Position numbers and translations under genes: made by a program
Assembly (NCBI GenBank): GCA_009835325.1
Contig: VXWP01000117.1
Span: 33,111-97,110 of the forward strand
DNA: 64,000 nucleotides
Direction of reading: 5' to 3'
Origin: Gemmatimonadota bacterium
Lineage (GTDB): Bacteria > JAAXHH01
In this document: piece after piece, positions 5,322 to 44,837 of the stretch
How positions within the stretch are numbered: the stretch's first letter is position 1
How the letters are laid out: each line of letters starts with the position of its first letter
The notes under the pieces: model-generated
What the model saw: only the letters and a program-made list of their open reading frames with translations
The model's database searches: none
Told to the model about the DNA's origin: nothing

Positions 5322-5366
5322 GCCCTTGACGGGTGCGGACCTGACTTCTCGGTTCAGGCCGCGCCA

Positions 5367-6326
5367 TCAGGCCGCGCCCAGATACCCCGCGAGTTGCTCG
5401 GGCATGATGTTCCCGCCGCTGAGCAGCGCCACGACCTTTTTGCCCTCCAGAGATACGATGCCGTTCAGCAGGGCGGCGACGCCGACCGCGCCTCCCGGCT
5501 CGACTACAAGTTTCGTCGTCCCGATCAGGTACTTCACCGCGTCGATCGCCTGTTCATCCGATACCAGGACCATCTCGTCCACGTAGGCCATTACGTGCTC
5601 GAAGGTAAGGTCCCCGGGGCGGGGCGCCACGAGTGAATCGCATACCGTGTCCGGTTCCGGCACCTCGCAGATCTCCTTCTTCATAAAAGACCGGTAAACC
5701 GCCTGCGACCCTTCGGGTTGTACCCCGATCACCTTCACCGCGGGGTTCAACGTTTTCACGGCCGTGGCAACGCCGCCGATCAGGCCCCCGCTGCTCACGG
5801 GGACGATCACGGCGTCAAGATCCGAAGCCTGTTCCATGATCTCGGCGCCGATGCTGCCATGGCCCCGAACGACGTTCGCGTCTTCCCAGGTGTTGATCGC
5901 GGTGATGCCCCGTTCCCTGCCCAGCCGGTCCAGCGTGTCCCACCTTGCCTGGTTGCGGTTTTCGCACAGCACCGCTTCGGCGCCGTAGTCCATCGTGCGC
6001 CGCACCTTGTAGGACGAGGTCTTTTCCATCATCACGATCGCCGTCGGAATCCCGAGCAGCGTGCCCATGTAGGCGAACGCCGTCGCGAAATTACCGGAGG
6101 ATGAGATCGCGGCGCCCTTCCTCTTCTGGTCCGCGGTAAGGCGGTTCAGGATGGTATAGGCCGCGCGCGTCTTGTAAGACCCCGTCACCTGCAGGTTTTC
6201 CGCCTTCATCCAGACGTCCGCGCCGGTCTGATCGGAAATCGTACCTGAATGCAGGACGGGCGTATATACGACCTCCGGCGGAAGTTCCTTTCTCGCCTGT
6301 TCGATTTCTTCCAGGTTGATCAGCAT
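5367..6326 (-). CDS. PLP-dependent threonine/serine dehydratase (catabolic-type, no regulatory domain)
   Basis: PLP-lysine motif TGSYKTRA and glycine-rich SSGNFATAFAYMG. The start was moved to internal ATG 6326 (MLINLEEIEQ), which has a GGAAGGG upstream. 319 aa. Confidence 0.8.
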   Translation of the reverse strand: MLINLEEIEQARKELPPEVVYTPVLHSGTISDQTGADVWMKAENLQVTGSYKTRAAYTILNRLTADQKRKGAAISSSGNFATAFAYMGTLLGIPTAIVMMEKTSSYKVRRTMDYGAEAVLCENRNQARWDTLDRLGRERGITAINTWEDANVVRGHGSIGAEIMEQASDLDAVIVPVSSGGLIGGVATAVKTLNPAVKVIGVQPEGSQAVYRSFMKKEICEVPEPDTVCDSLVAPRPGDLTFEHVMAYVDEMVLVSDEQAIDAVKYLIGTTKLVVEPGGAVGVAALLNGIVSLEGKKVVALLSGGNIMPEQLAGYLGAA

Positions 6327-11322: not shown

Positions 11323-12693
11323 TTATCCCGTGGAATCGACGAAGACCTGGTGCGCGCTGCGGTCCTTGCCGGCATCCTGCGCATGCTGGTATGACCGGTG
11401 CTCGGACGGCTTGCCGAGCGAGGTAAGGGCCAGCATTTTCTCCGCGGTCTTCGTGGCCACGTAGGGCCGCCGGATGTCCGTAGGGTTCGCCTGGATGTGC
11501 TGCTTCCACGCGCCCAAGTCCGTCTTGGCCTGGATCAGTCCCTTGATCATCCCCATGTCGTTCAACATGGCCACGTCGTCGGCAGGTCCGAGCATGATGG
11601 CGCCGGTGATCGTGGAACCGTCCCAGATCAGCTTCCGGTAGACCGGACGATTGGCGTTTATGACCTCGGTGACGTCGCCGTCGCCGGACCAGTCGCCGAA
11701 ACTGGCGCACTGCAGGCCGCACACGTCCAGGATGTTCATCAGCAGGCTGCCGGGATACTCCACGTCCTGGCCGGCCATGTTCGCGCCCGCGATCCGGCCG
11801 TGGTCGACGGCGGTGGGCTGAATGGCGTGCACCGCCTGGCTTCCGGTGGACAGGTCCGGTCCTTCGGCCACGTCACCCGCCGCATACACGTTGGCCACGT
11901 TGGACTGGCACCGGTTGTTGACCAGGACGCCCTGATTGGTCTCGATGCCCGATCCATCGAGAAAGCCGATATTGGCCTTGATCCCCGTGGCGACGATGAC
12001 CACGTCCGCCCGGGTGGACGAGCCATCGGAAAGCTCCAGGGTCTTCACGCCGTCGTGGCCGTGATCGATGGCCTGCACGCTCACGCCTGTGTGGACTTCG
12101 ACGCCCTGGGACTCGAGCCAGGAACCCACCAGGGAAGCGCCCTGGGCGTCCAGCATGCGAGGCAGCACCTGGTCTTCCAGTTCGATCACCTTCAGACGGG
12201 CGCCGCGCTTGTGCATCGCGTTGAGGATGATGAATCCGATGAACCCGGCCCCGATGAAGGCCACCTCGGCATCGCTTCCCAGGGCTGCCACGGTCTTTTC
12301 CGCGTCGGCCACGGTCCAGAGATTATGGACGCCGTCGCCGTCCGCGCCGGGTATGTTCAGCTTCTGAGCGGATGATCCCGTAGCGATCAGCAGGTTGTCG
12401 AAGGGCACCATGGATCCGTCGCTGAGCGTGAGCATGCTCGCGTGGGGATTCACCTCGGAGACGCTGACCCCGAAGCGGGTCTTCACCCCCAGCCTGCCGA
12501 AATAGTCGTCGTCCCCGGTATTAACCTGATCGACCGGGATGTTCCCCGAGATATAGTAGGGCAGGGCCATGCGGGAGTAGGCCGGTTCGTCGGAGATCAG
12601 GGTGATGGACGCGTCCGCGTCGTAACCGCGGATCGTTTCGATGGCATTCATCCCGCCCGGTCCGCCGCCTATAATCACGTGTTCTGTCGCCAT
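11323..12693 (-). CDS. FAD/NAD(P)-dependent pyridine-nucleotide-disulfide-family oxidoreductase (AorC-like electron-transfer subunit)
   Basis: Dinucleotide-binding motifs: an N-terminal GGGPGG and a second GAGFIG. Lies immediately downstream of two AOR genes on the same strand. Confidence 0.8.
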   Translation of the reverse strand: MATEHVIIGGGPGGMNAIETIRGYDADASITLISDEPAYSRMALPYYISGNIPVDQVNTGDDDYFGRLGVKTRFGVSVSEVNPHASMLTLSDGSMVPFDNLLIATGSSAQKLNIPGADGDGVHNLWTVADAEKTVAALGSDAEVAFIGAGFIGFIILNAMHKRGARLKVIELEDQVLPRMLDAQGASLVGSWLESQGVEVHTGVSVQAIDHGHDGVKTLELSDGSSTRADVVIVATGIKANIGFLDGSGIETNQGVLVNNRCQSNVANVYAAGDVAEGPDLSTGSQAVHAIQPTAVDHGRIAGANMAGQDVEYPGSLLMNILDVCGLQCASFGDWSGDGDVTEVINANRPVYRKLIWDGSTITGAIMLGPADDVAMLNDMGMIKGLIQAKTDLGAWKQHIQANPTDIRRPYVATKTAEKMLALTSLGKPSEHRSYQHAQDAGKDRSAHQVFVDSTG

Positions 12694-12774: not shown

Positions 12775-14604
12775 TCACGCGAGCCCCAGTTCCATCAGTT
12801 TTTCCCTGGTGGGCTGTCCGTCCGCCGTCCAGCCCCGGGCCGCGTAGTAGTCCGGCAGCATGGCGTCGAGATCGACGGTCACCCCCGCCGAAGGCCCTTC
12901 CTTGTGGGCTTCTTCCATCAGTCTTTTCGGCAACGTGTCATCGGCCGCGGTGAGACCGGCCTTCAGGTTCCACAGCCGTTCGATGTTCCAGATCCGTTCG
13001 CCGATATGCACGAAGTCGTCCATGGTGTATTCCACGCCGGTGGCCGCGGACAGCACGGGGATCAGGTCGTCCAGGGGCGCGCCCGCCGTGGTGAACATGC
13101 AGATGCCCGTGGCGTCATGTGCCGTGGTCCGGTTCTGCTCCTCGGCCACCCAGACCGACTTCCCGTCGGTACCGTGGGGATCGTACTCGCCGCTGGTTTC
13201 GATGCCGGGCGTCCAGGCCCTCAGGTGACAGGCACCGCGGTTGCAGGTGGCATAGGCCACGCCCATGCCCTGGAATCCCCGGGGATCATAGGCCGGGAAC
13301 TCCTGCCCCTTGACGCCCATGAAGTACTCCGGATGCTCGAACTTGTCGGTCATCCGCTTGGAGCCTTCGGCCAGTTCGTCGCCGAAGCCTTCCCGGAATC
13401 CCGTGGCTTCCGTCATGGCGACCAGGGCCTTGCCGTCTCCGAACCGTAGCGCCATGCCCGTCTGCTCATCGCTCAGCAGGCCCCGCTCGTACATTTCCAT
13501 GGCCGTGGCCAGCGTGGCGCCCATGGAAATGGGGTCCATGCCCAGGTCGTTGCACAGGTAGTTGGCCATGACGATGGCGTCCATGTCGTCCACGCCGCAG
13601 TCGGCCCCCAGCGACCAGAGGTTTTCGTACTCCGGTCCCTCGCCGGCGACCTTCCAGTTGCGGGGATGCATGTTGACCATGTACTTGTCGGCGTTGGGGG
13701 ACACCTGGGTCACGCGGCCGCAGGCGATGTTGCAGGCGAAGCAGGCCTTGTTGGCGATCAGCCAGTTATCCTTGATGCTCTCCCCGTTGATCGCCTCGGT
13801 GCCTTCGAACTGGCCGGCCGTGAAATTGCGCGTCGGCAGGCCGCCGAAGGTGTTGACCAGGTCGACCGTGGGCGCCGTGCCCAATTCCGTAAGTCCCTGC
13901 CGACCGGGACTCTCCGCCAGATGTTCGTGGTAGGACCAGATGGCGGACATGTAATCCCGGGGCCGTGCGACCCGCACGCCCTGGTTGCCCCGGACGGCGA
14001 TCGCCTTCAGGTTCTTGGAACCCATGACGGCACCGACGCCGGAACGGCCGGCCGCCCGGTGCTTGTCGTTGACGATGCACGCGAACCGCACCAGGTTCTC
14101 GCCTGCCGGTCCGATGCCGGCCACCCGTAACTCGGGCATGCCGGTCTCTTCTCGGATGGCGTCCTCGGTCTCCGAGACCACCTTGCCCCACACGCCGGCG
14201 GCGTCGCGGATCTCGACGCGGTCATCGTCGACGAGGAGGTAGCACGGACGGTCCGCACGGCCTTCCACGATCACCATGTCGTAGCCGGCGAACTTGAGCT
14301 CCGGGCCCCAGTGTCCGCCCGAATTGGACGTGGTGATTGCGCCGGTGAGCGGTCCCTTGGTGACCACCATGTAGCGGGCGCCGCAGGAGGCGTTGGTGCC
14401 CGTAAGCGGTCCGGTGGCCATGATCAGCTTGTTGTCGGGACCGAGGGCGTCGACCGAGGGATCCATCTCCTCGTAGAGGTACCGGGCGGCCAGTCCGCGG
14501 CCGCCGATGTATTCCTCGGCCCAGTCCAGTCTCAGGGGCTCTTTGGTCGCCTTGCCCCGCGACAGGTCCACCCGCAGGATATGGCCGGCCCACCCGTGTG
14601 TCAT
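12775..14604 (-). CDS. tungsten-containing aldehyde:ferredoxin oxidoreductase catalytic subunit (AOR family), copy 2
   Basis: 609 aa, full-length AOR family (N-terminal MTHGWAGHILRVDL..., conserved AOR domains). About 70% identical in the N-terminal region to the upstream copy. Confidence 0.9.
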   Translation of the reverse strand: MTHGWAGHILRVDLSRGKATKEPLRLDWAEEYIGGRGLAARYLYEEMDPSVDALGPDNKLIMATGPLTGTNASCGARYMVVTKGPLTGAITTSNSGGHWGPELKFAGYDMVIVEGRADRPCYLLVDDDRVEIRDAAGVWGKVVSETEDAIREETGMPELRVAGIGPAGENLVRFACIVNDKHRAAGRSGVGAVMGSKNLKAIAVRGNQGVRVARPRDYMSAIWSYHEHLAESPGRQGLTELGTAPTVDLVNTFGGLPTRNFTAGQFEGTEAINGESIKDNWLIANKACFACNIACGRVTQVSPNADKYMVNMHPRNWKVAGEGPEYENLWSLGADCGVDDMDAIVMANYLCNDLGMDPISMGATLATAMEMYERGLLSDEQTGMALRFGDGKALVAMTEATGFREGFGDELAEGSKRMTDKFEHPEYFMGVKGQEFPAYDPRGFQGMGVAYATCNRGACHLRAWTPGIETSGEYDPHGTDGKSVWVAEEQNRTTAHDATGICMFTTAGAPLDDLIPVLSAATGVEYTMDDFVHIGERIWNIERLWNLKAGLTAADDTLPKRLMEEAHKEGPSAGVTVDLDAMLPDYYAARGWTADGQPTREKLMELGLA

Positions 14605-14714: not shown

Positions 14715-16562
14715 CTACGCCAGTCCCAGCGACGCCAGTTTCTCCTGAGTGGGTTCGCCTTCCGCGTTCCAGCCGCGGATTTCGTAGTATTCCGGCAGCA
14801 TCTCGCCGAGTCGGTTCACTTCGCCCTTGGTCGGCCCGTCGGGGATCGGCTCTTCGAGCAGCCGCTTCGGCAGCGTGTCGTCCTTGCCCGTGAAGCCCGC
14901 CCGCTGGTTCCACATGCGCTCGATGTTCCAGACGCGCTCCCCGACCTCAAGCAGTTCGGGCACCGTGTAGGAGATGCCGGTCACCGCCTCGAGCTGGGGC
15001 TGTATCTCATCCAGGCCCACGCCGAAGGTGAGGAACAGGCAGAGGCCCGACGCGTCCACCGTGCAAGTGGCGTCCTGGAAGATCTTGGTGATCTCCGCCT
15101 TGCCTTCCGTCACGGCCGGATCCATCTTCTCCGGGATCCCCAGGATCTCGGGGGCGACCGTGTAGCTCTTCAGGTGGCAGGCGCCCCGGTTCGAGGTCGC
15201 GTAGCCCAGGCCCATGCCCTGGATCGCCCGGGCGTCGTAGGCCGGGAATTCCTGGCCGCGCACGCCCATGAAGAACTCGGGCCGGTTGAACTTGGCGGTC
15301 ATGCGCTTGGAGCCCTCGGCCAGTTCATCGCCGAAGCCTTCGCGGTAGGCCGCCTTTTCCGTCATGGCGACGAGCGCATCACCGCTCCCGAAGTTCAGCG
15401 GCATGCCGGTCTGCTCATCGCTCACGGCGCCGCTTTCGTACAGCTCCATGGCCGCGGCCAGCGTCGCCCCGAAGGAGATCGGGTCCATGCCCAGTTCGTT
15501 GCACATGGCGTTCGCCTTGATGAGCGCGTCCAGGTCGTTGATGCCGCAGTCGGCGCCCATGGCCCAGGCGTTCTCGTACTCCGGTCCTTCCACCGCGATC
15601 TTCCAGTTGTGGGGCCGGGTGGTCACGGTGAACTTGTCCTGCGCCTCGCCCGGCAGCTGAGACACCCTGCCGCAGGCGATCGTGCAGCCGAAGCAGGCCT
15701 TGTTGGCCACCAGCCGCGTATCGGCCAGGGTCTCCCCGCTGATGTTGTCCGCGCCTTCGAGCTGCGAGACCTGGTGGTTGTTCGTCGGCAGTGCGCCGCT
15801 CTCGTTGATGATGTTGACCAGCACCGCGGTGCCGTATGCGGCCAGACCCTCACCCGTTACCGGATGCTCGACCAGCTTGCTCTTCATCTCCCACATGGCC
15901 GACATGAACTTCTGCGGGTCGGCGATGGGCACGCCCCCGGTACCGCGTACGGCAATGGCTTTGAGGTTCTTTGAACCCATGACCGCGCCGACGCCGGATC
16001 GTCCGGCGGCCCGGTGCCGGTCATTGACTATGGCGGCGAAACGCACGAGGTTCTCGCCCGCCGGACCAATACAGGTAACGACTGTATCGTGCTGCCCCGA
16101 CTCCTCCCGGACGATATCATCCGTCTCCCAAACCGTCTTGCCCCACAGGTGCTCGGCGGAGCAGATCCGGACATCGTTGTCGCAGATGGAGATGTAGGAC
16201 GGAACCGGCGCCCGGCCTTCCACGATCAGCATGTCGTACCCGGCGAACTTCAGTTCCGGTCCCCAGTGGCCGCCCGAGTTGGACGTGGTGATGGCGTTGG
16301 TCAGCGCCCCCTTGGTGACCACCATGTAGCGTGAACTCGTCGAGGCGTTCGTGCCGGTCATGGGACCGGTCGCGAAAATCATCTTGTTGTCCGGGCCCAG
16401 CGCGTCCGCCGCCGGGTCCATTTCTTCATAGAGGTACCTGGCCGCGAGGCCGCGCCCGCCCACGAAGGACTTGGCCCAGTCCATGTTGAGGGGCTCTTTG
16501 GAGATCCGACCGGTGGTCAGATCGATGCGCAGGATCGTGCCTGTCCATCCGCCGTTGCTCAT
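14715..16562 (-). CDS. tungsten-containing aldehyde:ferredoxin oxidoreductase catalytic subunit (AOR family), copy 1
   Basis: True start is the internal ATG at 16562 (MSNGGWTGTILRIDL). The 726-aa track ORF is read-through. The start overlaps the ferredoxin stop as ATGA. Confidence 0.9.
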   Translation of the reverse strand: MSNGGWTGTILRIDLTTGRISKEPLNMDWAKSFVGGRGLAARYLYEEMDPAADALGPDNKMIFATGPMTGTNASTSSRYMVVTKGALTNAITTSNSGGHWGPELKFAGYDMLIVEGRAPVPSYISICDNDVRICSAEHLWGKTVWETDDIVREESGQHDTVVTCIGPAGENLVRFAAIVNDRHRAAGRSGVGAVMGSKNLKAIAVRGTGGVPIADPQKFMSAMWEMKSKLVEHPVTGEGLAAYGTAVLVNIINESGALPTNNHQVSQLEGADNISGETLADTRLVANKACFGCTIACGRVSQLPGEAQDKFTVTTRPHNWKIAVEGPEYENAWAMGADCGINDLDALIKANAMCNELGMDPISFGATLAAAMELYESGAVSDEQTGMPLNFGSGDALVAMTEKAAYREGFGDELAEGSKRMTAKFNRPEFFMGVRGQEFPAYDARAIQGMGLGYATSNRGACHLKSYTVAPEILGIPEKMDPAVTEGKAEITKIFQDATCTVDASGLCLFLTFGVGLDEIQPQLEAVTGISYTVPELLEVGERVWNIERMWNQRAGFTGKDDTLPKRLLEEPIPDGPTKGEVNRLGEMLPEYYEIRGWNAEGEPTQEKLASLGLA

Positions 16563-17050
16563 GCCGCGTTCCCTCCCTCGATGGATGTCAGGTAGGACTC
16601 GTTTACCTTCTCGGCCCATCCGCCCAGCCAGTCGGCCGACTCGCTCTCGGTGTATTCGATGGCGCCTGTCGGGCAGGCGACCGCGCAGGCCGGATTGCCG
16701 TCGCACAGATCGCACTTGAAGGCCTTCTGCGTGTCGGGATTGTAGAACACCGTGCCGAAGGGACAGGCGATGGTGCACAACCCGCAACCTACGCAGTTGG
16801 CATCGCCCACGACCTTGGCGCCGGTATCCGCGTCGATGCTGATGGCGTTCACGGGGCAAGCCGTCATGCACCAGGCTTCGTCGCACTGGAAACACGTGTA
16901 CGGCGCGTAACTGGCCTGCTCATCGAAAATGTTCACGCGGATCAGCGACCGGGATGGTTGAAACATGCCGGTCTGCACCCAGGAACATGCCAGTTCGCAC
17001 TGCATGCACCCGGTGCATTTTTCAGGGATTATGCGTAGAGATTTAGCCAT
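16559..17050 (-). CDS. ferredoxin-like electron-transfer subunit with four [4Fe-4S]-binding Cys motifs (AorA-like)
   Basis: Four CxxCxx(xx)CxxxC(P) motifs. The start was moved to ATG 17050 (MAKSLRIIPEKCTGC), which has AAGGGAG 6 nt upstream. Confidence 0.85.
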   Translation of the reverse strand: MAKSLRIIPEKCTGCMQCELACSWVQTGMFQPSRSLIRVNIFDEQASYAPYTCFQCDEAWCMTACPVNAISIDADTGAKVVGDANCVGCGLCTIACPFGTVFYNPDTQKAFKCDLCDGNPACAVACPTGAIEYTESESADWLGGWAEKVNESYLTSIEGGNAA

Positions 17051-35680: not shown

Positions 35681-36376
35681 TTGTCAGTCAGTACTGAAGC
35701 GGCCGCACACGGCCACGATGAACACGCCGCGCATCCGGAATACATGCGTCATCAGTTCGACGACATGGACCAGCAGAACGATGCCGCGAGCCTGGGGATG
35801 TGGCTGTTCCTGCTGACGGAAGTCATGTTCTTCGGCGGGTTCTTTCTGGGATATTCGATCTACCGGAGCGAGTACTACGATTCCTTCGTTATCGGAAGCC
35901 AGAATCTCGACGTCTTCTTGGGCGGCCTGAACACCGTCGCCCTGATCACCAGCAGCGTCACCATGGCCTTCGCCGTCCGGGCGGCCCAGCTCGGCAAGAA
36001 GAACCACATCCTGATCTTCCTGGTGCTGACCCTGGTACTCGGCCTCGTGTTCATGGTGAACAAGTACATCGAGTACTCCCACAAGCTGCACGACGGCCTG
36101 ATTCCCGGATACAATTTCCTGTGGACCGCTGCGGGCGACGGGCAGACCATCCAGTTGTTTTACGGCTTCTACTTCTGCATGACCGGGACGCACGGCCTGC
36201 ACGTCCTCATCGGACTCGTGCTCATCGTCTGGCTGCTGATCCGCGTCTGGCAGGACAAGTTCACCACCGAGTACTACGCGCCGATCGAGAACTTCGGCCT
36301 GTACTGGCACTTCGTCGACCTGGTCTGGATCTTCCTCTTCCCGCTGCTGTACCTCATCGGCGGACTGGCCGTATAG
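35681..36376 (+). CDS. coxC: cytochrome c oxidase subunit III
   Basis: Conserved subunit III sequence and TM pattern. Confidence 0.9.
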
Positions 36377-36386
36377 GGATCATACC

Positions 36387-36761
36387 ATGACTGAACACGC
36401 AGAACACGGACATCAAGCCGAAGGTGGCCATCAAGCCGAAGGCGGACACGGGGACCACCACGGCCCCCACATCGCGACCACGGCCAACTACCTGACCATC
36501 TTCACGGCGCTGCTGGTCCTCACCGCCGTGACCGTGTGGGCGGCCACCATGGAATTGGGCTTTCTCAACACGCCTGTGGCCATGTTCATCGCCAGCGTAA
36601 AGGCCATCCTGGTGATCCTGTACTTCATGCACCTGAAGTTCAGCCCCGGCCAGACCAAGCTCGCCGCCGCCGCAGCCATCTTCTGGCTGCTCATTCTCCT
36701 CATCATCACCTTCTTCGACTACATAGGCCGCACCTGGCAGGACAATCCCGCGGGCTGGTAA
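36387..36761 (+). CDS. cytochrome c oxidase subunit IV (bacterial caa3-type small subunit) with His-rich N-terminus
   Basis: Three TM helices. Position after coxC. N-terminal HGHQAEGGHQAEGGHGDHHGPH. Confidence 0.7.
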   Translation: MTEHAEHGHQAEGGHQAEGGHGDHHGPHIATTANYLTIFTALLVLTAVTVWAATMELGFLNTPVAMFIASVKAILVILYFMHLKFSPGQTKLAAAAAIFWLLILLIITFFDYIGRTWQDNPAGW

Positions 36762-37114
36762 CGGGCTGGATTTTGTCCTCAGCTAAGCCGTCGGCCGTAC
36801 CGCTTGGATGGCGAATCGTCCAAACCTCCGGTTGACGTTCTGCCCTTCGACGAACCGCCTTCCAAAGTCAAATGGCCGCTACTGCCGAAGCATCGGTTGT
36901 GGCGCGGGTGCGGTTTTCTCTTCTGTCGGCGACGGATCAAGTTCCCCCTTTTTAAAAAAACCACGATATAGCCCTTTCAATTCTGACTATCCCCTTTAGG
37001 ACATCGGACGTGTATTGTGCCACGCGGAATCTGCATCATGGCCGGTACCCGTTCCAGTACCATTCGTGTACGCCGTACACCAATCGGTTCATTCAGTTGC
37101 ATAAGGAGGGGGTC

Positions 37115-37438
37115 ATGTTGAAAGGTATTTCGGATACGAACACGGAAGAACAGATATTGCGCTCAATAGATGTTCTTAAAGAAGTTGTACTATCTTCGAG
37201 AACGGACACCAAACAGCGGTTCGAACGTGTTGAAGCCGACATCACGGCATTCCGATCGGACGTCAATCAGCGGTTCGAAGGCGTCGAGTCCGACATCCAA
37301 GACATCCGTAAGGAATTGTCGGAGTTCCGAACGGACGTCAATCAGCGGTTTGAACGCGTTGAAGCCGACTTCAAGGAAGTTCGAAACGACATCAAGGAGA
37401 TCAAGGAGTCGCTGCGAGAGATGAACAGGCGCGGTTGA
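37115..37438 (+). CDS. small coiled-coil repeat protein (three R[ST]DV[NK]QRFE[RG]VE[AS]D units), unknown function
   Basis: AAGGAGGG SD 4 nt before ATG 37115. Lies in an AT-rich island. The 142-aa track ORF is over-extended upstream. Confidence 0.5.
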   Translation: MLKGISDTNTEEQILRSIDVLKEVVLSSRTDTKQRFERVEADITAFRSDVNQRFEGVESDIQDIRKELSEFRTDVNQRFERVEADFKEVRNDIKEIKESLREMNRRG

Positions 37439-37509
37439 TTGACACGGAGGGGAGGTTTTGCAGGCGAGATCATCAAACCTGCGCACAGTTCGCACAATAG
37501 GAGTACGTC

Positions 37510-37701
37510 ATGTGGGAAAACCCAGTCACATACGCAGTACTATTAGGCGCGATGGGTAGTCTTGTCAGCATTGGGGTATGGATCGGCAGAGTAAATTCGT
37601 TCAAAGCTTCAGTTGAAAACACGCTTGCGGAGATCAAAGAATCCATCAAAGGCATTCAGGATTCCATCGAGAAGATCCTGCTCCGACTACCGCCGGATTG
37701 A
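37510..37701 (+). CDS. small protein with an N-terminal TM helix and C-terminal coiled coil, unknown function
   Basis: AGGAG SD 6 nt before the ATG. Same AT-rich island. Confidence 0.45.
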   Translation: MWENPVTYAVLLGAMGSLVSIGVWIGRVNSFKASVENTLAEIKESIKGIQDSIEKILLRLPPD

Positions 37702-37750
37702 AGCGGAATTGCACGGGTAATGTGAATCGTAAACAGCTTGCGAGCCGGAG

Positions 37751-39052
37751 CTAGATATACCTTACCCATCCTTTGGGACGGCGGGCTTTGAATCGGCGGA
37801 ACCACAGGCACACCGGATAGAGCAGGATCAGCACCCCCAGGGCGGCCAGGTAGGCGGCGCCCAGACCCTGTTGCATGAACATGCCCAGAGCCAGCCCGCT
37901 GAAGATCAGGATGTGCATATGAATCAGGTAGAAGAAGAAGGCGGTCTGGCCGAACACCAGCAGGGGATTCCGGTTTCGGATCGGATTTTTCAAATTGCGC
38001 TGGTACCGGAAGAAACCGGACAGGATCAGGGCCATCAGACCCAGCTCCAGCAGTGCGAAGGTCAGGCTTGGCGGGTATTTACTGACATAGAGCCACTGCA
38101 CCAGGGAAAAGTCCTCACGCAGGAGCAGCATGTTGCCATATCCGTTCCAGGCGCGGAACAGCACGAACAGTCCCAGTGCCAGAAGCCCCGCGATGACCAG
38201 CAGGCGCTCAATCGGCATCGGGGACCGTGGCGCGCCGGCGGACGCTCCGATGGTCGACCCACTTGAAACATCGGACGACGGCGTCGGTGCGATCGATTGC
38301 TGTACCAGGTAACGCCCCAGCAACCAGCCCAGGATCATCATCCCCAGCCAGGGCACGAAGGGATACTGCACCCACAGGGGTATGGGGCCGATCTTGACGA
38401 GCAGCCCCGGATGAAAAAACGGGTTGAAAACGCTCATCCAGCCCAGGTTGCGGACCTGGGCAGCCGCCTCGTTCATCGCTTCCTGATCGAATTCCCCGTC
38501 CGGCATCGGCATCTTCGTCACCTCGCGAATCATGTCGGCCGAAATGCCGCCCAGGTGCATGATGCCCCAGAACACGGCTTCGTGACGGAACAGGATCGAA
38601 AGGGCGGCGATCAGCAGCGTGCGGGTGGACAGGCGCCGCAGGGGGATCATGCAGATCAGGCCCATGGCGATGGCGAACAGGACCTGGAGACTGAACGGAG
38701 ACCACCACAGCAGTTCGAAGGCAAGGATGACGAGCGCCCGCTTGAACAGGTGCCGATCCAGGTCGCGGTCACGCGCGCCGGCAAGACGGCGCCGCTCGAA
38801 ACTCAGCGCCAGCGCGGTCCCGGCCAGGAAGACGAAGGTCGGCGCGCACAGGTGGGTGATCCAGCGTGTGAAGAACTGGGCGGCGGGGAGCGCGGTTCCC
38901 GCCTCATGGGCGTACCACGAATCGTCGGCGAGCCGGCCACCGTTAAACGCCAGGCTGGCGTGGTCGATGGCCATCAGGACCATGACGAGGCCGCGCATCC
39001 AGTCGATCGCCGCCATGCGGTTGGCGTCTGTGATCGGCCGCGTTCCAGCCAT
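37751..39052 (-). CDS. polytopic membrane acyltransferase-3-like protein (HGSNAT/DUF1624-like)
   Basis: About 10 TM segments. N-terminal motif MAAIDWMRGLVMVLMAIDHA is typical of this family. Confidence 0.6.
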   Translation of the reverse strand: MAGTRPITDANRMAAIDWMRGLVMVLMAIDHASLAFNGGRLADDSWYAHEAGTALPAAQFFTRWITHLCAPTFVFLAGTALALSFERRRLAGARDRDLDRHLFKRALVILAFELLWWSPFSLQVLFAIAMGLICMIPLRRLSTRTLLIAALSILFRHEAVFWGIMHLGGISADMIREVTKMPMPDGEFDQEAMNEAAAQVRNLGWMSVFNPFFHPGLLVKIGPIPLWVQYPFVPWLGMMILGWLLGRYLVQQSIAPTPSSDVSSGSTIGASAGAPRSPMPIERLLVIAGLLALGLFVLFRAWNGYGNMLLLREDFSLVQWLYVSKYPPSLTFALLELGLMALILSGFFRYQRNLKNPIRNRNPLLVFGQTAFFFYLIHMHILIFSGLALGMFMQQGLGAAYLAALGVLILLYPVCLWFRRFKARRPKGWVRYI

Positions 39053-39106
39053 CCCCGCATCTTGGACTGTTCGGTTGTTCGAGATTTCCTGACTCCCAGA
39101 TCGATT

Positions 39107-39119
39107 TTAGTGTAAATTA
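39107..39119. promoter_or_regulatory. inverted repeat GTGTAA-a-TTACAC immediately upstream of the hdc start
   Basis: Perfect 6-bp arms with a 1-bp spacer, 7 nt before ATG 39126 in the divergent promoter region. Confidence 0.3.
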
Positions 39120-39125
39120 CACGTT

Positions 39126-40271
39126 ATGACCACGAGACCTGCATACCCTGACCCGGTTGCCGATACAGCCGTGCTCGACGAGTGTAGCACGGCAAGGCTG
39201 GATGCGCTCTACGAGCGACTGACCTCCCTCAGGAAGGTATCCATCGGCTATCCGTGCAATCACCGGTTCGATTTCGCCCCGCTCTACCGCTTCATGGAGT
39301 TTGCCGTCAACAATCTGGGCGATCCGTTTTCGGGCAGCAACTTCCGCATGAACACCCACGACTTCGAACGCGAGGTGATCATGACCTTTGCCCGCCTGAC
39401 GGGGATCGACAGCGAAGACTGCTGGGGTTACGTAACTAACGGCGGGACGGAGGGGAACATGTACGGCCTCTATCTCGCCCGGGAAATCCATCCGGACGGC
39501 ATCGTCTATTTCTCCGAGGATACGCATTACAGCGTCAGCAAGATACTCAGGCTGCAACATACGCGCAATATTATGATTCGAAGCGGTCATACCGGTGAAA
39601 TGGACTACCGGGACCTGGAGGAGAGCATCCGGATCCACCGCGATGTGCCGCCCATCGTGTTCGCCAATGCCGGTACGACGATGACGGGCGCCATCGACCG
39701 GCTGGACCGCATACGGGAGGTCCTTGAAAGACAATGCACGCCGAACGCGTACATTCATGTCGACGCGGCCTTTTCGGGCATGATCCTGCCCTTCGTGGAC
39801 GATCCGCCGCCCTGGCACTTCGGCGATGGCGCCGACAGCATTTCCATTTCGGGACACAAGATGATCGGATCTCCCCTGCCGTGCGGCGTGGCCATGGTAC
39901 GGAAGACGCACATGGAACGTATTTCCCGTTCGGTCGAATATGTGGGCGCGCTCGATACCACCATAAGCGGATCCAGAAACGCGATTACACCCCTGATGCT
40001 CTGGTATGCCCTGCGCCTGCACGGCGACGACGGGTTTCGAGACCTGGTCGGCGAGTCCGTGCGAAAAGCGGCCTATGCGGAGAAGGCGCTGAACGAGATC
40101 GGCGTGAAGGCCTGGCGTAATCCCTACTCGGTCACGGTCGTCTTTCCCCGGCCGCCGAAAGCTATCATGGACAAATGGGTGCTAGCCGGTTCCGGCGACA
40201 TAGCGCACCTCATTGCCTTGCCAGGCGTTACCTGGGAAACGCTTGAGGAATTCATTGACGATATGCAGTGA
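39126..40271 (+). CDS. hdc: pyridoxal-phosphate-dependent histidine decarboxylase (Gram-negative HdcA type)
   Basis: Strong collinear similarity to enterobacterial/Vibrio PLP-HDC (CWGYVTNGGTEGNMYGLYLAREIHPDGIVYFSEDTHYSVSKI; PLP-Lys motif SISGHKMIGSP). ~380 aa. Confidence 0.85.
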   Translation: MTTRPAYPDPVADTAVLDECSTARLDALYERLTSLRKVSIGYPCNHRFDFAPLYRFMEFAVNNLGDPFSGSNFRMNTHDFEREVIMTFARLTGIDSEDCWGYVTNGGTEGNMYGLYLAREIHPDGIVYFSEDTHYSVSKILRLQHTRNIMIRSGHTGEMDYRDLEESIRIHRDVPPIVFANAGTTMTGAIDRLDRIREVLERQCTPNAYIHVDAAFSGMILPFVDDPPPWHFGDGADSISISGHKMIGSPLPCGVAMVRKTHMERISRSVEYVGALDTTISGSRNAITPLMLWYALRLHGDDGFRDLVGESVRKAAYAEKALNEIGVKAWRNPYSVTVVFPRPPKAIMDKWVLAGSGDIAHLIALPGVTWETLEEFIDDMQ

Positions 40272-40693
40272 GCAACCGAGAAATCCACATGAATGAAATC
40301 ATCATCCCGGTAAAAGAACCTCCCGGCACCCTGGCGGCCGTCTCCGAATCGCTCGCCCGTGCCCAGATCAACATCGAATTCATAGAGGCCCGCGTGGTGG
40401 GGGAGGGCGGCATCATCGTATTGCGCGTGGACCGCTATGACGCCGCGCTCCGGATACTGAGGGATGCGGGGTACCGCGCGGTTACCGAGGATGCCCTTGT
40501 GCTCGACCTGGAAAACCGGCCCGGTGCGCTGGCGGAGGTGGCAAGGCGCCTGGCGGACGCCAGGATCGGAATCCGCAGCCTTCGGATCGTCGAACGGGCC
40601 GGTGAACGAAGCCTGGTGGCGCTGGTCGCGGATGATCCGGACGCCGCCCGGCAATTACTCGCCGCGGAGCTTGTGGGTGGGGGCGGGACTTGA
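40268..40693 (+). CDS. ACT domain-containing protein (two ACT-like halves)
   Basis: The GTG at 40268 overlaps the hdc stop (GTGA). An alternative ATG lies at 40289. The beta-alpha-beta-beta-alpha-beta pattern is repeated twice. Confidence 0.65.
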   Translation: MSNREIHMNEIIIPVKEPPGTLAAVSESLARAQINIEFIEARVVGEGGIIVLRVDRYDAALRILRDAGYRAVTEDALVLDLENRPGALAEVARRLADARIGIRSLRIVERAGERSLVALVADDPDAARQLLAAELVGGGGT

Positions 40694-40700
40694 ATAAAGC

Positions 40701-42050
40701 CTACAGCAGGGACATGTAGGTTTTCAGTTCGTAGTCGGTGACCTGGGACCGGTAGCGTTCCCATTCTTCCTGCTTGTTCTCGATCAGCTTGTCGAAGACC
40801 TCTTCTCCGAGACAATTCACCAGCAACTCGCTTCCTTCCGCCAGTTTGATCGCCTCGTTCAGGTCTTTGGGCAGGGGCTGTATGCCCAGCTTCCGGCGTT
40901 CCTCATGGGACATGCTGGACAGGTCGACCTCCGCCGGTGGGCCGAGTTCGTACCCGTTCTCAATGCCCGCCAGGCCCGCGGAGAGGATGACGGCAAAGGC
41001 CAGGTAGGGGTTGCAGGATGGATCGGGGGCGCGGTATTCCACGCGCATGGCTTCATGTTTCGAGGGGTTGTAGGTAGGCAGCCGGATCATGTCCGCCCGG
41101 TTGTGCAACGCCCACGATACGAAAAGCGGCGCCTCGTAGCCGGCGATGAGCCGCTTGTACGAGTTGACCCACTGATTGGTGACCAGCATGGTCTCGGGAG
41201 CGTGGCGCATCAGCCCGGCGACAAAAGACCGGCCCGTATCCGACAGGTGGTATTCCATGCCTTCGTCGAAAAAGGCGTTTTGGTCGCCGCGGAAGAGCGA
41301 AAGGTGTATGTGCATCCCGCTTCCGTTGTGGCCGGCGTGGGGCTTGGGCATGAAGGTGGCGTACACGTTGTGCCGGAGGGCCACTTCCTTCACCACGAGG
41401 CGGTAGGCCATCGTATAGTCCGCCATGGTCATGGCGTCGGTGTACCGCAGGGAGATCTCGCTCTGGCTGGGACCGCCCTCGTGGTGGCTGAACTCGACGC
41501 CGATACCGATCTCTTCGAGGGCCATCACGGTGTCGCGCCGCAGGTCCGTCGCCCAGTCCAGGGGCGTCAAGTCGAAGTAACCGCCCTGGTCGAGGGGCTG
41601 GGGCGGGCCTTCGCTGGACTTCAGGTAGTAGTATTCCAGTTCGGGCTGGACGTAGAAGGTGAACCCGTGCTCGGCCGCGCGATGGAGGCTCCTTCTCAGG
41701 ATCTGGCGGGGGTCGCCCTCGTAGGGCCTGGCGCCGTCGGGTTCGAGGATATCGCAGAACATGCTGCCCACGGCGCTCTTCCGGGCGTCAGGCCGCCACG
41801 GCAGGATCTGGAACGTGCTGGGATCCGGCATGGCGATCATGTCCTCCTCGCTGTGCCGGATGAATCCCTCGATGGAAGAGCCGTCGAAGACTTCGCCGTC
41901 CTCCAGGGCGTCTTCCAGTTCCTCCACGGTGATGGAAAAACTCTTCAGAAAACCCAGAATGTCCGTAAACCACAACTGGATGATCTTGACGTTGTGTTCC
42001 TGGGCTGTATGGAGGACGTAATCCTTCGCCGCATCCGATGTGTCGTTCAT
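40701..42050 (-). CDS. glnA: glutamine synthetase, type I-alpha (449 aa)
   Basis: Full-length GS signature regions (NVKIIQLWFTDILG..., MPKPHAGHNGSGMHIHLSL, NPYLAFAV). GlnA versus a gamma-glutamyl-amine ligase cannot be distinguished from sequence alone. Confidence 0.85.
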   Translation of the reverse strand: MNDTSDAAKDYVLHTAQEHNVKIIQLWFTDILGFLKSFSITVEELEDALEDGEVFDGSSIEGFIRHSEEDMIAMPDPSTFQILPWRPDARKSAVGSMFCDILEPDGARPYEGDPRQILRRSLHRAAEHGFTFYVQPELEYYYLKSSEGPPQPLDQGGYFDLTPLDWATDLRRDTVMALEEIGIGVEFSHHEGGPSQSEISLRYTDAMTMADYTMAYRLVVKEVALRHNVYATFMPKPHAGHNGSGMHIHLSLFRGDQNAFFDEGMEYHLSDTGRSFVAGLMRHAPETMLVTNQWVNSYKRLIAGYEAPLFVSWALHNRADMIRLPTYNPSKHEAMRVEYRAPDPSCNPYLAFAVILSAGLAGIENGYELGPPAEVDLSSMSHEERRKLGIQPLPKDLNEAIKLAEGSELLVNCLGEEVFDKLIENKQEEWERYRSQVTDYELKTYMSLL

Positions 42051-42078
42051 GCCTTACCTGCAGGGGGTTCCACCATGG

Positions 42079-42189
42079 CTACTTGGACGGCTTTACCTTG
42101 CGCTTCCTCTTCATGTCGCGGATCGCGGCCTTGCGCCTCTGTTCCTTGCGGAACCGCTGTCTCCGGAGTTCCTTCTGGCGTTCGCGCAT
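42079..42189 (-). CDS. unannotated 36-aa highly basic small ORF (MRERQKELRRQRFRKEQRRKAAIRDMKRKRKVKPSK) 28 nt upstream of glnA
   Basis: Translated by hand. AGGAG lies 5 nt before the ATG. Below the ORF-track size cutoff. Confidence 0.3.
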   Translation of the reverse strand: MRERQKELRRQRFRKEQRRKAAIRDMKRKRKVKPSK

Positions 42190-42417
42190 ACCTGCTCCTG
42201 GTGCGTGTCCGGCACCTGGACCGGACGGTTGTTTTAGGCTCCCGAAGACCCGGATCGAGCTGTTCTTCGGCGAGCCCTGACTGCTCGGATTCGATCAGAT
42301 TGTCATTGATTGCAGCTTCAAGGACGATTATACAATCTAATCCGGGCAGCCTGTCCGGGCAATCAGTTTCTCGGTCGTTCAACACCCCGGTATTCCGTCT
42401 TCCGACTGGAGTCTTGC

Positions 42418-43404
42418 GTGAACCAGGTACGTCTACTGTCTAGATCGGATATGGCTTCCGTCCTCACCATGCCGGATGTCATCGAAGCCGTGGAAGAGGG
42501 GTTTCGGTCCGCGGGCGAGAAAGACGACGTCCCCGTCCGCCTGCCCGTCCACGTAGCGGACCGGCCCTCCGTCGCGCTTTTCATGCCGGCCTACCTTGCC
42601 GGATCGCATACGCTGGGCGCCAAGGTCGTTTCCGCGTTCCACGACAATCCTGCCAGGGGCCTTCCGATGATCACGGGATTCTACGTGCTGTGCGACGCGG
42701 AGACCGGGCGGCTCATCGCCCTGATGGACGCCACTTTCCTCACCGGAATACGTACGGCGGCCGCGTCCGCGGTGGCCACGAAGTACCTGGCGCGCAAGGA
42801 TGCCAGGGTACTGGGCATCATCGGGACGGGCGTCCAGGGCCGGTTCCACGTGGACGCGATCCTGGCGGTCCGCCCCATCGAACGGATCGTCGTGTACAAC
42901 CGGACGCCCGAGCGGGGACACGCACTCGCCGATGACCTTTCGTCCCGGGGGATATCCTGCCGCGTGGCGGAAACCGCTGCCGAATGCGCGGCCGAAGCGG
43001 ACGTGCTCGCGGTCTGCACGTCCAGCAAGTCGCCCCTCTTCGACGGCGGCCTGGTTCGTCCCGGCAGCCACGTGAACGCCGTTGGCGTCTACACCGCCGA
43101 CTCGCAGGAACTGGACGCCGGGTTGATCCGGCGGGCCCGCGTGTTCGTCGATACCTACGAAGGCGCGCTCGAGGAAGCGGGCGACATCATCGTCCCCCTG
43201 CGGGCGGGCGAAATCTCCAGGGATCACATCCGCGCCGAACTGACCGAACTGGTGACCGGCAGGAAGGAAGGACGGACCGGTGACGGGGAGATCACCGTTT
43301 TCAAATCCGTGGGTTACGCCATGGAAGACGCGGTCACCGCGCGCCTGGCCTATGAACGGGCAGCGGATTCGGGGGTAGGCGCTACATTCGACCTGGAAGC
43401 ATGA
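42418..43404 (+). CDS. ornithine cyclodeaminase / mu-crystallin family protein
   Basis: Rossmann GIIGTGVQG and typical OCD-family N-terminus. Start placed at GTG 42418 (GGAG 8 nt upstream). ATG 42451 is an alternative. Confidence 0.8.
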   Translation: MNQVRLLSRSDMASVLTMPDVIEAVEEGFRSAGEKDDVPVRLPVHVADRPSVALFMPAYLAGSHTLGAKVVSAFHDNPARGLPMITGFYVLCDAETGRLIALMDATFLTGIRTAAASAVATKYLARKDARVLGIIGTGVQGRFHVDAILAVRPIERIVVYNRTPERGHALADDLSSRGISCRVAETAAECAAEADVLAVCTSSKSPLFDGGLVRPGSHVNAVGVYTADSQELDAGLIRRARVFVDTYEGALEEAGDIIVPLRAGEISRDHIRAELTELVTGRKEGRTGDGEITVFKSVGYAMEDAVTARLAYERAADSGVGATFDLEA

Positions 43405-44444
43405 AGCGCGTTTTGATCATCCGATCGGGCGCGGTCGGGGACCTGATTCTTACGCTCCCCGTGCTCTCCGCGTTGAAGAAGCGTTATAGCGGCCTGTCCA
43501 TCGGCATAATGGGCGATCCGGTCCGGCTGTCGCTGTTGAAGCACTGCGGGTTCGTGGACGACGTGCTATCGGTGGACGACCGGAAATTCACCCCTCTGTT
43601 CGCGCCGGGCGGACCGGGCACACCGGGCGGCGCACTCCCGGGCTCCGTGCCGCGGAAGCTGCCCGATCATTTGATTCGGCACCTGCGATCCTACGACTTA
43701 ATACTCTCCTATCTGCCCGATCCCGACGGTGTGTTCGTGGAGAATCTCCGAAGGATTGCGTCCGGCCCGGTGCTCACAGGACAGTCCCGGCCTCCCGACG
43801 GCCGTAGAATCCACATGACCCGCGTGTTGATGGATGCACTGAAACCCCTGGGTATCGAGACTGCAGTCGATCCACCCCGGGTCGTAGTTCCGTCAAGCGA
43901 CGCCCCGGACGACTTGGGAGAACCGGAAACGGAACAAGGGCTGGTCGCCATCCACCCTGGTAGCGGTGGCGCGGACAAATGCTGGCAGGCGGAAAACTAC
44001 GGGGCACTGATCGACCTGTTGACCGAATCGGGCTTCAGGCCGATGATCACCTTCGGGCCGGCGGATCACCGGATCCGTCGTCGCCTGCTGCCCTGGATCG
44101 AATCCCGCGATGTCCTGGTTATCGAGGACCGGTCCCTGGTGGAAGTGGCCGCCCTGTATGCCCGTTGCCGGACCATGATCGGCAACGATTCGGGCATGAC
44201 CCACCTGGCCGCGGCCGCGGGCACGCCGGCCATCGCGCTGTTCGGACCGACGGACCCGGCCGTCTGGGGTCCCCGGGGGAAGGACGTGTGCATACTGTGG
44301 GGTACCGATGTGTTCGAAGGAGACGTGGACGGTATAAGATGGAAGCCACCGTTCCGCCCGCGAAGCCTGGACGACATCGAAGCGACGACCCCGTTTCGAA
44401 CCCTGTCGGGTTTCTGTGCAGCCGCCGGCGCGGAACGCAATTAG
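43401..44444 (+). CDS. glycosyltransferase family 9 (heptosyltransferase-like)
   Basis: N-terminal MKRVLIIRSGAVGDLILTLPVL and C-terminal GNDSGMTHLAAAAGTPAIALFGPT, both typical of GT9. Start overlaps the OCD stop. Confidence 0.8.
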   Translation: MKRVLIIRSGAVGDLILTLPVLSALKKRYSGLSIGIMGDPVRLSLLKHCGFVDDVLSVDDRKFTPLFAPGGPGTPGGALPGSVPRKLPDHLIRHLRSYDLILSYLPDPDGVFVENLRRIASGPVLTGQSRPPDGRRIHMTRVLMDALKPLGIETAVDPPRVVVPSSDAPDDLGEPETEQGLVAIHPGSGGADKCWQAENYGALIDLLTESGFRPMITFGPADHRIRRRLLPWIESRDVLVIEDRSLVEVAALYARCRTMIGNDSGMTHLAAAAGTPAIALFGPTDPAVWGPRGKDVCILWGTDVFEGDVDGIRWKPPFRPRSLDDIEATTPFRTLSGFCAAAGAERN

Positions 44445-44516
44445 ATTCAAGAGTCAGGGGTGGTTTCATGTAAATAAGTTGAGGTTACCTCAGAACCGAT
44501 GAAATGTTGAAGGCAC

Positions 44517-44837
44517 TTGACACGACTTCAAGGGCGTACTATGTTCGCCGACATGCGACCGGATTGGTTGAAGCTAAAGTGTTGGACCGCGGTTTTTGCT
44601 GTCGCCCTCTTCGTGCTCTCGGCGACGCCCCATGACCACGACCACGACGAAGAATGCGTAAACGGCACCTGTGTTCCCTGTCATGTCCAGGGACTGCCAA
44701 CCATCGATTCCATCGATCGCTCCGGGGCACACGACTTTCCCGATGTGCCGGTATACCGTATATCCGGCGCGTACGCCCAGGTGCATCCCCTTGATGCGGC
44801 GACCCGAGGACACGATTCTCGGGCCCCACCTGCCTGA
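44517..44837 (+). CDS. small secreted His/Asp-rich protein with a CxxCH-like motif (HDHDHDEECVNGTCVPCH), hypothetical
   Basis: The ORF has a hydrophobic N-terminal segment. The start is uncertain (an ATG at 44541 gives MFADM...). Lies upstream of the ABC ATPase. Confidence 0.35.
   Translation: MTRLQGRTMFADMRPDWLKLKCWTAVFAVALFVLSATPHDHDHDEECVNGTCVPCHVQGLPTIDSIDRSGAHDFPDVPVYRISGAYAQVHPLDAATRGHDSRAPPA

Follow-up and report, generated by a model that had tools for sequence, protein, structure and literature searches.

Gene content of the hdc locus

A stretch of 64,000 nucleotides from contig VXWP01000117.1 of a Gemmatimonadota bacterium, referred to here as a whole as the window, contains a gene for a pyridoxal phosphate (PLP)-dependent decarboxylase (hdc), which is followed on the same strand by a gene for a small protein with two ACT domains and preceded by a divergently oriented gene for a membrane acyltransferase (Table 1). 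An earlier note on this DNA had described the locus as a histidine decarboxylase (HDC) with a translationally coupled ACT partner, placed beside an acyltransferase that might modify the histamine. The three open reading frames (ORFs) of that description, the last of them ending at position 40693, and the 73-bp divergent region between the first two (39053-39125) were all confirmed.

The 381-aa hdc product matched the family Pyridoxal_deC (PF00282) with 87.5 bits, against a cut-off of 27, and 6013 relatives were found in the databases at E<=1e-20. Its closest solved structures were those of the HDC of Photobacterium phosphoreum (7eru and 7erv, E about 1e-103; 3e-103 for 7erv), followed by those of plant serine and alanine decarboxylases (8jg7, 8jik and 8jij, E about 4e-91 to 4e-90), while all remaining matches were far weaker. 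With an identity of 47% to the Photobacterium enzyme and of 42% to the plant serine decarboxylase, the assignment to HDC in the earlier note holds only at the level of the family, and the "nearly residue-for-residue" agreement that it had seen is an overstatement. The residues G107-T108, H134, T184/185, D213, A215, S242-G-H-K245, Y272 and S283 match, by sequence motif, PLP-binding and catalytic residues of the plant alanine decarboxylase CsAlaDC and the plant serine decarboxylase AtSerDC. Known roles at these positions are those of the PLP lysine in S-x-H-K, the Asp at the pyridine nitrogen, the stacking His, the phosphate-binding Gly-Thr and Ser, and the Tyr of the catalytic loop; S283 is the counterpart of the phosphate-binding Ser contributed by the neighboring subunit. 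K245, D213, H134, G107-T108, S283 and Y272 were invariant in a protein alignment of close relatives (A1), and the SGHK motif was found at residues 242-245, as had been noted before. Judged by these residues, the catalytic machinery of the window decarboxylase is intact, and its gene can be placed in the HDC/serine-decarboxylase branch of the group II PLP decarboxylases. Some members of the wider family (P0132, P0144, P0178 and P0161) are 760-1030 aa long and carry large unannotated N-terminal extensions before the decarboxylase domain; part of these long proteins show a GYPCR motif.

The product of the downstream gene was found to possess two ACT domains, with two matches to Pfam ACT in addition to matches to ACT_AHAS_ss and ACT_8, and its AlphaFold2 model (pLDDT 84.5) consisted of two beta-alpha-beta-beta-alpha-beta units in a tandem ACT fold, in agreement with the ACT-domain partner proposed earlier. 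Two loop glycines, G13 and G79, one in each beta1-alpha1 loop, were invariant in an alignment of the ACT proteins (A4). The best Foldseek matches were BT0572 (2f06), YdjB and the regulatory subunits of aspartokinase (beta) and acetohydroxyacid synthase (AHAS), and a sequence search agreed with this result. BT0572 from Bacteroides thetaiotaomicron, an uncharacterised stand-alone tandem-ACT protein of comparable length (144 aa), was the best match in both structure and sequence, with an identity of 23%. The closest functional analogy would be a separately encoded ACT regulatory subunit of the IlvBN or LysC alpha-beta type. Similar to the AHAS subunits IlvN/IlvH and the beta subunit of LysC, the window protein is a small tandem-ACT protein encoded together with, or overlapping, a catalytic gene, and it shares with them a Foldseek probability of 1.00, the ACT_AHAS_ss match and the Gly in each beta1-alpha1 loop. 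In contrast to these subunits, its partner is a PLP decarboxylase, its sequence similarity to them is weak (E about 1e-4), and the TM-scores reach only 0.4-0.5 because the two ACT domains are differently oriented.

The junction of the two genes differs between the window and its relatives. The decarboxylase of close relatives comprises 388 aa, and the window version ends 7 residues sooner (A1) at a TGA that replaces a CGA, the DNA alignment (A2) reading CAG-CGA in the closely related locus L001 and CAG-TGA in the window, where a gap of 17 nt is left before the ATG of the ACT gene. At three related loci (L001, L003 and L007) the stop of the decarboxylase gene overlaps the ACT start as ATGA, aligned to 40289-40292 of the window. 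The N-terminus of the ACT protein, M-[NKR]-[EQ]-I-I-I-P-V (MNEIIIPV in the window), was kept in 20 homologs, the most distant of them with 35% identity; a start at GTG 40268 would prepend 7 unconserved residues. Since both the ATGA junction of the relatives and this conserved N-terminus coincide with it, ATG 40289 is taken as the real start of the ACT gene, which gives a predicted protein of 134 aa. As stated in the earlier note, the GTG at 40268 and the TGA of hdc do overlap, but this GTG is not the ACT start, and the overlap is a by-product of the nonsense change specific to the window. The truncation costs only the variable C-terminal tail, and both the function of the decarboxylase and the coupling of the two genes by reinitiation would be expected to persist.

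Table 1. Positions of genes, motifs and other features at the hdc locus (window coordinates; A1, protein alignment of close relatives; A2, DNA alignment)
Feature	Position	Strand	Basis or remark
Acyltransferase-3/HGSNAT-like polytopic membrane protein, 433 aa	37751-39052	-	Pfam; divergent from hdc
Palindrome GTGTAAATTACAC	39110-39122		Examined; judged not a supported element
Group II PLP decarboxylase (hdc), 381 aa	39126-40271	+	PF00282, NF002748, PDB 7erv
G41-Y-P-C44-N45, C44 at the YPX specificity position	39246-39260	+	Invariant in A1
N62-N-L-G-D-P67-F68 loop	39309-39329	+	Shared with plant serine decarboxylase; canonical HDCs NNCGDW
S242-G-H-K245, K245 as predicted PLP Schiff-base lysine	39849-39860	+	Corresponds to CsAlaDC His308-Lys309
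Catalytic-loop Tyr272 (VEYVG) through G282-S-R-N-A-I-T288	39939-39989	+	Sequence comparison
Window-specific premature TGA (CGA in relatives)	40269-40271	+	A1, A2
Ancestral ATGA junction, ACT ATG over hdc stop of relatives	40289-40292	+	DNA alignment
Stand-alone tandem-ACT protein, 134 aa, putative regulatory subunit	40289-40693	+	Pfam ACT, ACT_AHAS_ss, ACT_8

Conservation and fusion of the decarboxylase and ACT genes

When one genome per species was scanned, 80 loci were recovered at 55-96% identity, and the complete set of related loci amounted to 87; the number of species-level genome matches exceeded 580. A tblastn search located an ACT gene immediately downstream of the decarboxylase gene at 82 of the 87 loci, which represent about eight phyla, and thus bore out the conserved neighborhood of the two genes. 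Two of the five misses were due to contig ends and three (L043, L053 and L054) were genuine. At one of these (L043:7107-8504, from a metagenome-assembled genome [MAG] of the Verrucomicrobiaceae) a DUF1501 gene stands in place of the ACT gene and overlaps the decarboxylase gene by 4 nt. Among the 79 loci where the ACT match was full-length the two genes were joined by a 4-nt ATGA overlap in 49 cases, and the gap did not exceed 30 nt in 76. Likewise, five homologs with 64-94% identity all had the ACT gene directly downstream (5/5), in flanks that were unrelated outside the close lineage. Decarboxylase and ACT genes hence form a conserved, usually overlapping two-gene unit, and this pairing is the best-supported finding at the locus.

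The closest loci (85-96% identity) belong to MAGs of Gemmatimonadota and Latescibacterota, while the others were found in Bryobacterales (Acidobacteriota), many Verrucomicrobiota, Dehalococcoidia and other Chloroflexota, Pirellulales (Planctomycetota), Binatia, and Methylobacter and other Proteobacteria (Alpha- and Gammaproteobacteria). Many of the loci with 57-60% identity (L060-L087) derive from complete-chromosome MAGs that are labelled only "bacterium", Dehalococcoidia, Chloroflexota, Alphaproteobacteria or Binatia. The isolate names of the nearest relatives, SB0665_bin_8 and APA_bin_41, are presumably those of marine-sponge metagenome bins, and sponge symbionts may commonly carry the module.

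No conserved third gene accompanied the pair. In an all-against-all clustering of the ORFs of the 87 loci, from which ORFs overlapping hdc were set aside, no conserved transporter, acyltransferase, glutamine synthetase-like protein or oxidase was detected, and no other family occurred in more than 14 loci. The recurrent neighbors were lineage-specific housekeeping genes (lepA, lepB, accC and genes for NIPSNAP, zinc-ribbon and EamA proteins), and the acyltransferase gene, glnA and a cyclodeaminase gene travel with hdc only in the 7 closest loci. Viewed from the side of the ACT protein, a homolog of 45% identity lies behind a decarboxylase gene and one of 35% identity stands alone; the word-indexed search with the ACT protein returned 46 relatives, so that its spread outside hdc loci is thinly sampled.

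The stand-alone homolog is one of three observations that would fit an ACT protein unrelated to the decarboxylase, serving instead the adjacent glutamine synthetase or acting as a free-standing sensor of amino acids. The other two concern glnA, which in the window lineage lies tail to tail with the ACT gene with only 7 nt between the ends (window 40693-40701), and which in a Methylobacter MAG (L081, 1174-3155) follows the ACT gene on the same strand as a type I glnA. However, glnA adjoins the ACT gene only in the close lineage and at that one other locus, and since the window lineage and Methylobacter are unrelated this arrangement may be a coincidence. Against such an independent role also stand the position of the ACT gene behind hdc at nearly all of the loci, mostly with overlapping codons, and the many clusters in which both parts are fused, which together make it extremely improbable.

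These natural fusions comprise 14 or more protein clusters. When representatives at 50% identity were searched exhaustively, decarboxylases with lengths of 532, 557 and 593 aa were recovered, and their C-terminal parts match an ACT profile built from the related loci. The 557-aa fusion represents a cluster of 17 members on many contigs, including MAGs of the cyanobacterial genus Waterburya, and the 593-aa form includes a protein of the green alga Picocystis salinarum. At least 12 more fused clusters were present among the best 120 matches; some of them are only 45% identical to one another, and one is from Opitutales. Repeated fusion of two genes and a near-universal overlap between them are standard evidence that their products work together.

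Substrate of the decarboxylase and proposed function of the pair

The equivalog model NF002748, "histidine decarboxylase", has a cut-off of 305 bits, and the window protein passed it with 464 bits. However, AtSerDC and CsAlaDC, which have been proven biochemically to be serine and alanine decarboxylases, respectively (PMC11407765), passed it equally well with 462 and 455 bits, while a true HDC scored 574 bits. Since proven serine and alanine decarboxylases pass the model just like the window protein, a match to it does not tell the substrate. This is the first of four results, the others being the YPX residue, two further loops and the tree, that make the label which NF002748 uniformly gives to this clade unsafe.

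Differences between the window protein and enzymes of known specificity were found in the active-site signature. Mutagenesis of the plant enzymes has shown that the third residue of a YPX motif sets the specificity, with Tyr for serine and Phe for alanine (PMC11407765). Canonical HDCs from Photobacterium, Klebsiella and Acinetobacter carry GYPES with Glu at this position, while the window enzyme has Cys44 in GYPCN and nearly all of the 87 related loci have GYP[C/T]N; in the decarboxylase-ACT fusions the residue is Cys, Val or Ser. Of the two other signature loops, NNLGDPF of the window replaces NNCGDW of canonical HDCs, and in GSRNAI the residues A286-I287 stand where both HDC and serine decarboxylase have Gly-His (GSRNGH). 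Across the 87 loci GYP[C/T]N, NNxGDPF and GSR[NS]A[IFL] thus take the place of the canonical signature GYPES, NNCGDW and GSRNGH. In addition, 15 clade-discriminating sites, at which canonical HDCs have one invariant residue and the ACT-linked clade a different one with at least 90% conservation, were compared with the plant serine decarboxylase, whose residue is shared by the ACT-linked clade at 5 of them and by canonical HDCs at 1. In a neighbor-joining tree of 143 sequences, a simple distance tree without support values, the clade of the window protein joined the ACT fusions, apart from both the canonical HDC clade (PpHDC/P0128) and the plant clade.

The gene context also differs from that of canonical HDCs, whose clusters carry antiporters and hisRS (PMC8465708). 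Antiporter, hisRS and siderophore genes were absent from the window scans and not conserved in the 87 loci; in particular, no nonribosomal peptide synthetase (NRPS) and no APC-type antiporter was found among the neighbors of hdc and 20 of the large ORFs of the window (355-1006 aa), as the earlier note had remarked. Conversely, the HDC homologs of a Klebsiella plasmid and of Acinetobacter baumannii have GYPES, and their loci lack an ACT gene within 5 kb.

Taken together, the window enzyme resembles the canonical Gram-negative HDC represented by the Photobacterium structures 7ERU and 7ERV in fold, length class and the residues for PLP binding and catalysis, among them S-x-H-K and the loop Tyr. 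It departs from this enzyme and its Klebsiella and Acinetobacter homologs in three tested features (signature loops, placement in the tree and gene context, with an ACT partner in place of the antiporter/hisRS or siderophore genes). With AtSerDC (8JG7) and CsAlaDC (8JIK/8JIJ) it shares YPxN, NNLGDPF, several clade-discriminating residues and an equal score in the HDC model, but it lacks their key feature, having Cys or, in relatives, Thr instead of Tyr or Phe; it differs from them further in GSRNA[IFL] for GSRNGH, in its bacterial origin and in its ACT partner. A C-terminal zinc finger of 3 Cys and 1 His has been reported for the two plant enzymes.

A true HDC that makes histamine, with an ACT protein that senses histidine or a related amino acid, would agree with the Photobacterium enzyme as the best solved match, with the score above the NF002748 cut-off, with the full set of catalytic residues and with the annotation of homologs as HDC in their source records. 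On the other hand, that model equally accepts decarboxylases proven to act on serine or alanine, the Glu, Ser and Trp of the canonical signature are replaced by Cys or Thr, Asn and Pro, the clade stands apart from canonical HDCs, and a conserved histidine/histamine exchanger, hisRS or siderophore genes of the kind found in canonical clusters are missing from the 87 loci. We therefore consider a true HDC unlikely. The specificity for histidine assumed in the earlier note is not supported. With the three canonical sequence features missing and a small neutral residue at the specificity position, another, probably neutral, amino acid is clearly the better candidate than histidine. A potential clue to the substrate, the called 717-aa IlvE-decarboxylase fusion P0370 (L093:6001-8525), was discarded as a probable indel artefact of a long-read contig because both the linker and the tail seem to be out of frame; the end of this gene is overlapped by an ACT ORF, and IlvE adjoins the decarboxylase at no other locus. 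Genes for an amino-acid permease and an M20 peptidase lie approximately 2.3 kb downstream of P0370.

In summary, the pair is best interpreted, with a probability of about 0.65, as an ACT-regulated cytoplasmic two-component amino-acid decarboxylase of the HDC/serine-decarboxylase family whose substrate is left unassigned. A dimeric group II PLP decarboxylase would constitute the catalytic part and would be co-translated with the tandem-ACT subunit. The latter would bind an amino acid as effector, namely the substrate or the end product of the pathway, at its Gly-containing loops and tune the activity of the decarboxylase. The amine would be made in the cytoplasm, presumably for internal use rather than for acid resistance or siderophore synthesis, because no exchanger was found and the neighborhoods are of a housekeeping type.

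Several points weigh against this interpretation. A physical complex and allostery are suggested by synteny, by the fusions and by analogy to other ACT subunits, and the ACT partner cannot be strictly required, since three loci have the decarboxylase without it. The YPX specificity residue was defined in plant enzymes and is extrapolated here to the ACT-linked clade, which is known from its sequences and gene neighborhoods alone and whose separation from canonical HDCs depends on a tree lacking support values. Finally, histidine retains a lesser share of the probability as the substrate because the closest solved enzyme is an HDC, with 47% identity compared to 42% for the serine decarboxylase.

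To our knowledge, a dedicated ACT regulatory subunit has not been described for any group II PLP amino-acid decarboxylase, and in the library searched no paper combined "histidine decarboxylase" and "ACT domain"; judged by title or abstract, none of the 12 papers listed out of 44 matches on Verrucomicrobia and histamine appeared to deal with the ACT-linked clade. The ACT-decarboxylase module is abundant and ranges over Verrucomicrobiota, Chloroflexota, Gemmatimonadota, Planctomycetota, Proteobacteria, cyanobacteria and a green alga. It is conceivable, although we suggest it only tentatively, that this clade is an unrecognised family of allosteric decarboxylases that act on some amino acid besides histidine and supply a housekeeping or signaling amine. 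If this is true, thousands of "histidine decarboxylase" annotations, and the conclusions on microbial histamine derived from them, would be wrong. This annotation issue bears on histamine production inferred from annotation alone in environmental or host-associated bacteria, a conclusion already drawn for sponge symbionts (PMC10570526). Since cultured carriers exist (Roseimicrobium gellanilyticum, Prosthecobacter fluviatilis and Verrucomicrobium spp.), the question of the substrate is directly testable.

Surroundings of the operon

The protein encoded upstream of hdc on the opposite strand scored 40.5 bits against Acyl_transf_3 and 35.8 bits against HGSNAT_cat, each above the Pfam cut-off, in support of the HGSNAT-like membrane acyltransferase named in the earlier note. 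These matches, together with the divergent arrangement that is kept in the 7 closest loci, would be consistent with a three-gene pathway, possibly controlled through the palindrome, in which the acyltransferase N-acylates histamine or another amine. However, the acyltransferase is missing from the other 80 loci, and even in the closest relative (L012, 96% identical) a gene for a Mutator-family transposase (4622-5857) lies between it and hdc. The palindrome GTGTAAATTACAC is indeed perfect, as had been reported. However, the window contains 25 perfect 6-N-6 palindromes in all, and this one carries a single mismatch in both of the two nearest relatives and is missing from the other four. An operator function was consequently rejected, the palindrome being at chance level in the window and not conserved, and the proposed pathway link to the acyltransferase is very improbable.

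The GC content of hdc (58.9%) is below the window mean of 62.0% (sd 3%), which agrees with the lower value noticed earlier. As it falls in the 12th percentile, it is unremarkable, and the acquisition of the gene that had been deduced from it was dismissed.

The hdc-ACT operon is located downstream of a cox operon. Beyond the ACT gene, the convergent glnA is followed by a gene of the ornithine-cyclodeaminase family, a heptosyltransferase gene and an ABC transporter. A riboswitch or other RNA element was not indicated, since Rfam gave no match at E<=1 around the operon (36300-44600), and scans for promoters and terminators there returned background level only.

Between the cox operon and the acyltransferase gene an island of approximately 50% GC (36900-37700) interrupts the 62% GC of the window. 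It contains an ORF of 142 aa with repeated coiled-coil segments (RxDVNQRFExVExDI...; 37010-37438) and a hydrophobic ORF of 63 aa (37510-37701), and the gap in L001 that is syntenic to it has no called gene. This GC-poor island may be an insertion.

Further upstream, two aldehyde:ferredoxin oxidoreductase (AFOR_N + AFOR_C) genes stand in tandem on the minus strand (12775-14604 and 14715-16895), adjoined by a gene for a pyridine-nucleotide-disulphide oxidoreductase (11323-12693). The segment 24866-29294 encodes a 4Fe-4S dicluster-domain protein of 1006 aa and, after it, an NrfD-family membrane protein, with SCO1 and the cox operon downstream, a layout that we take to resemble that of alternative complex III.

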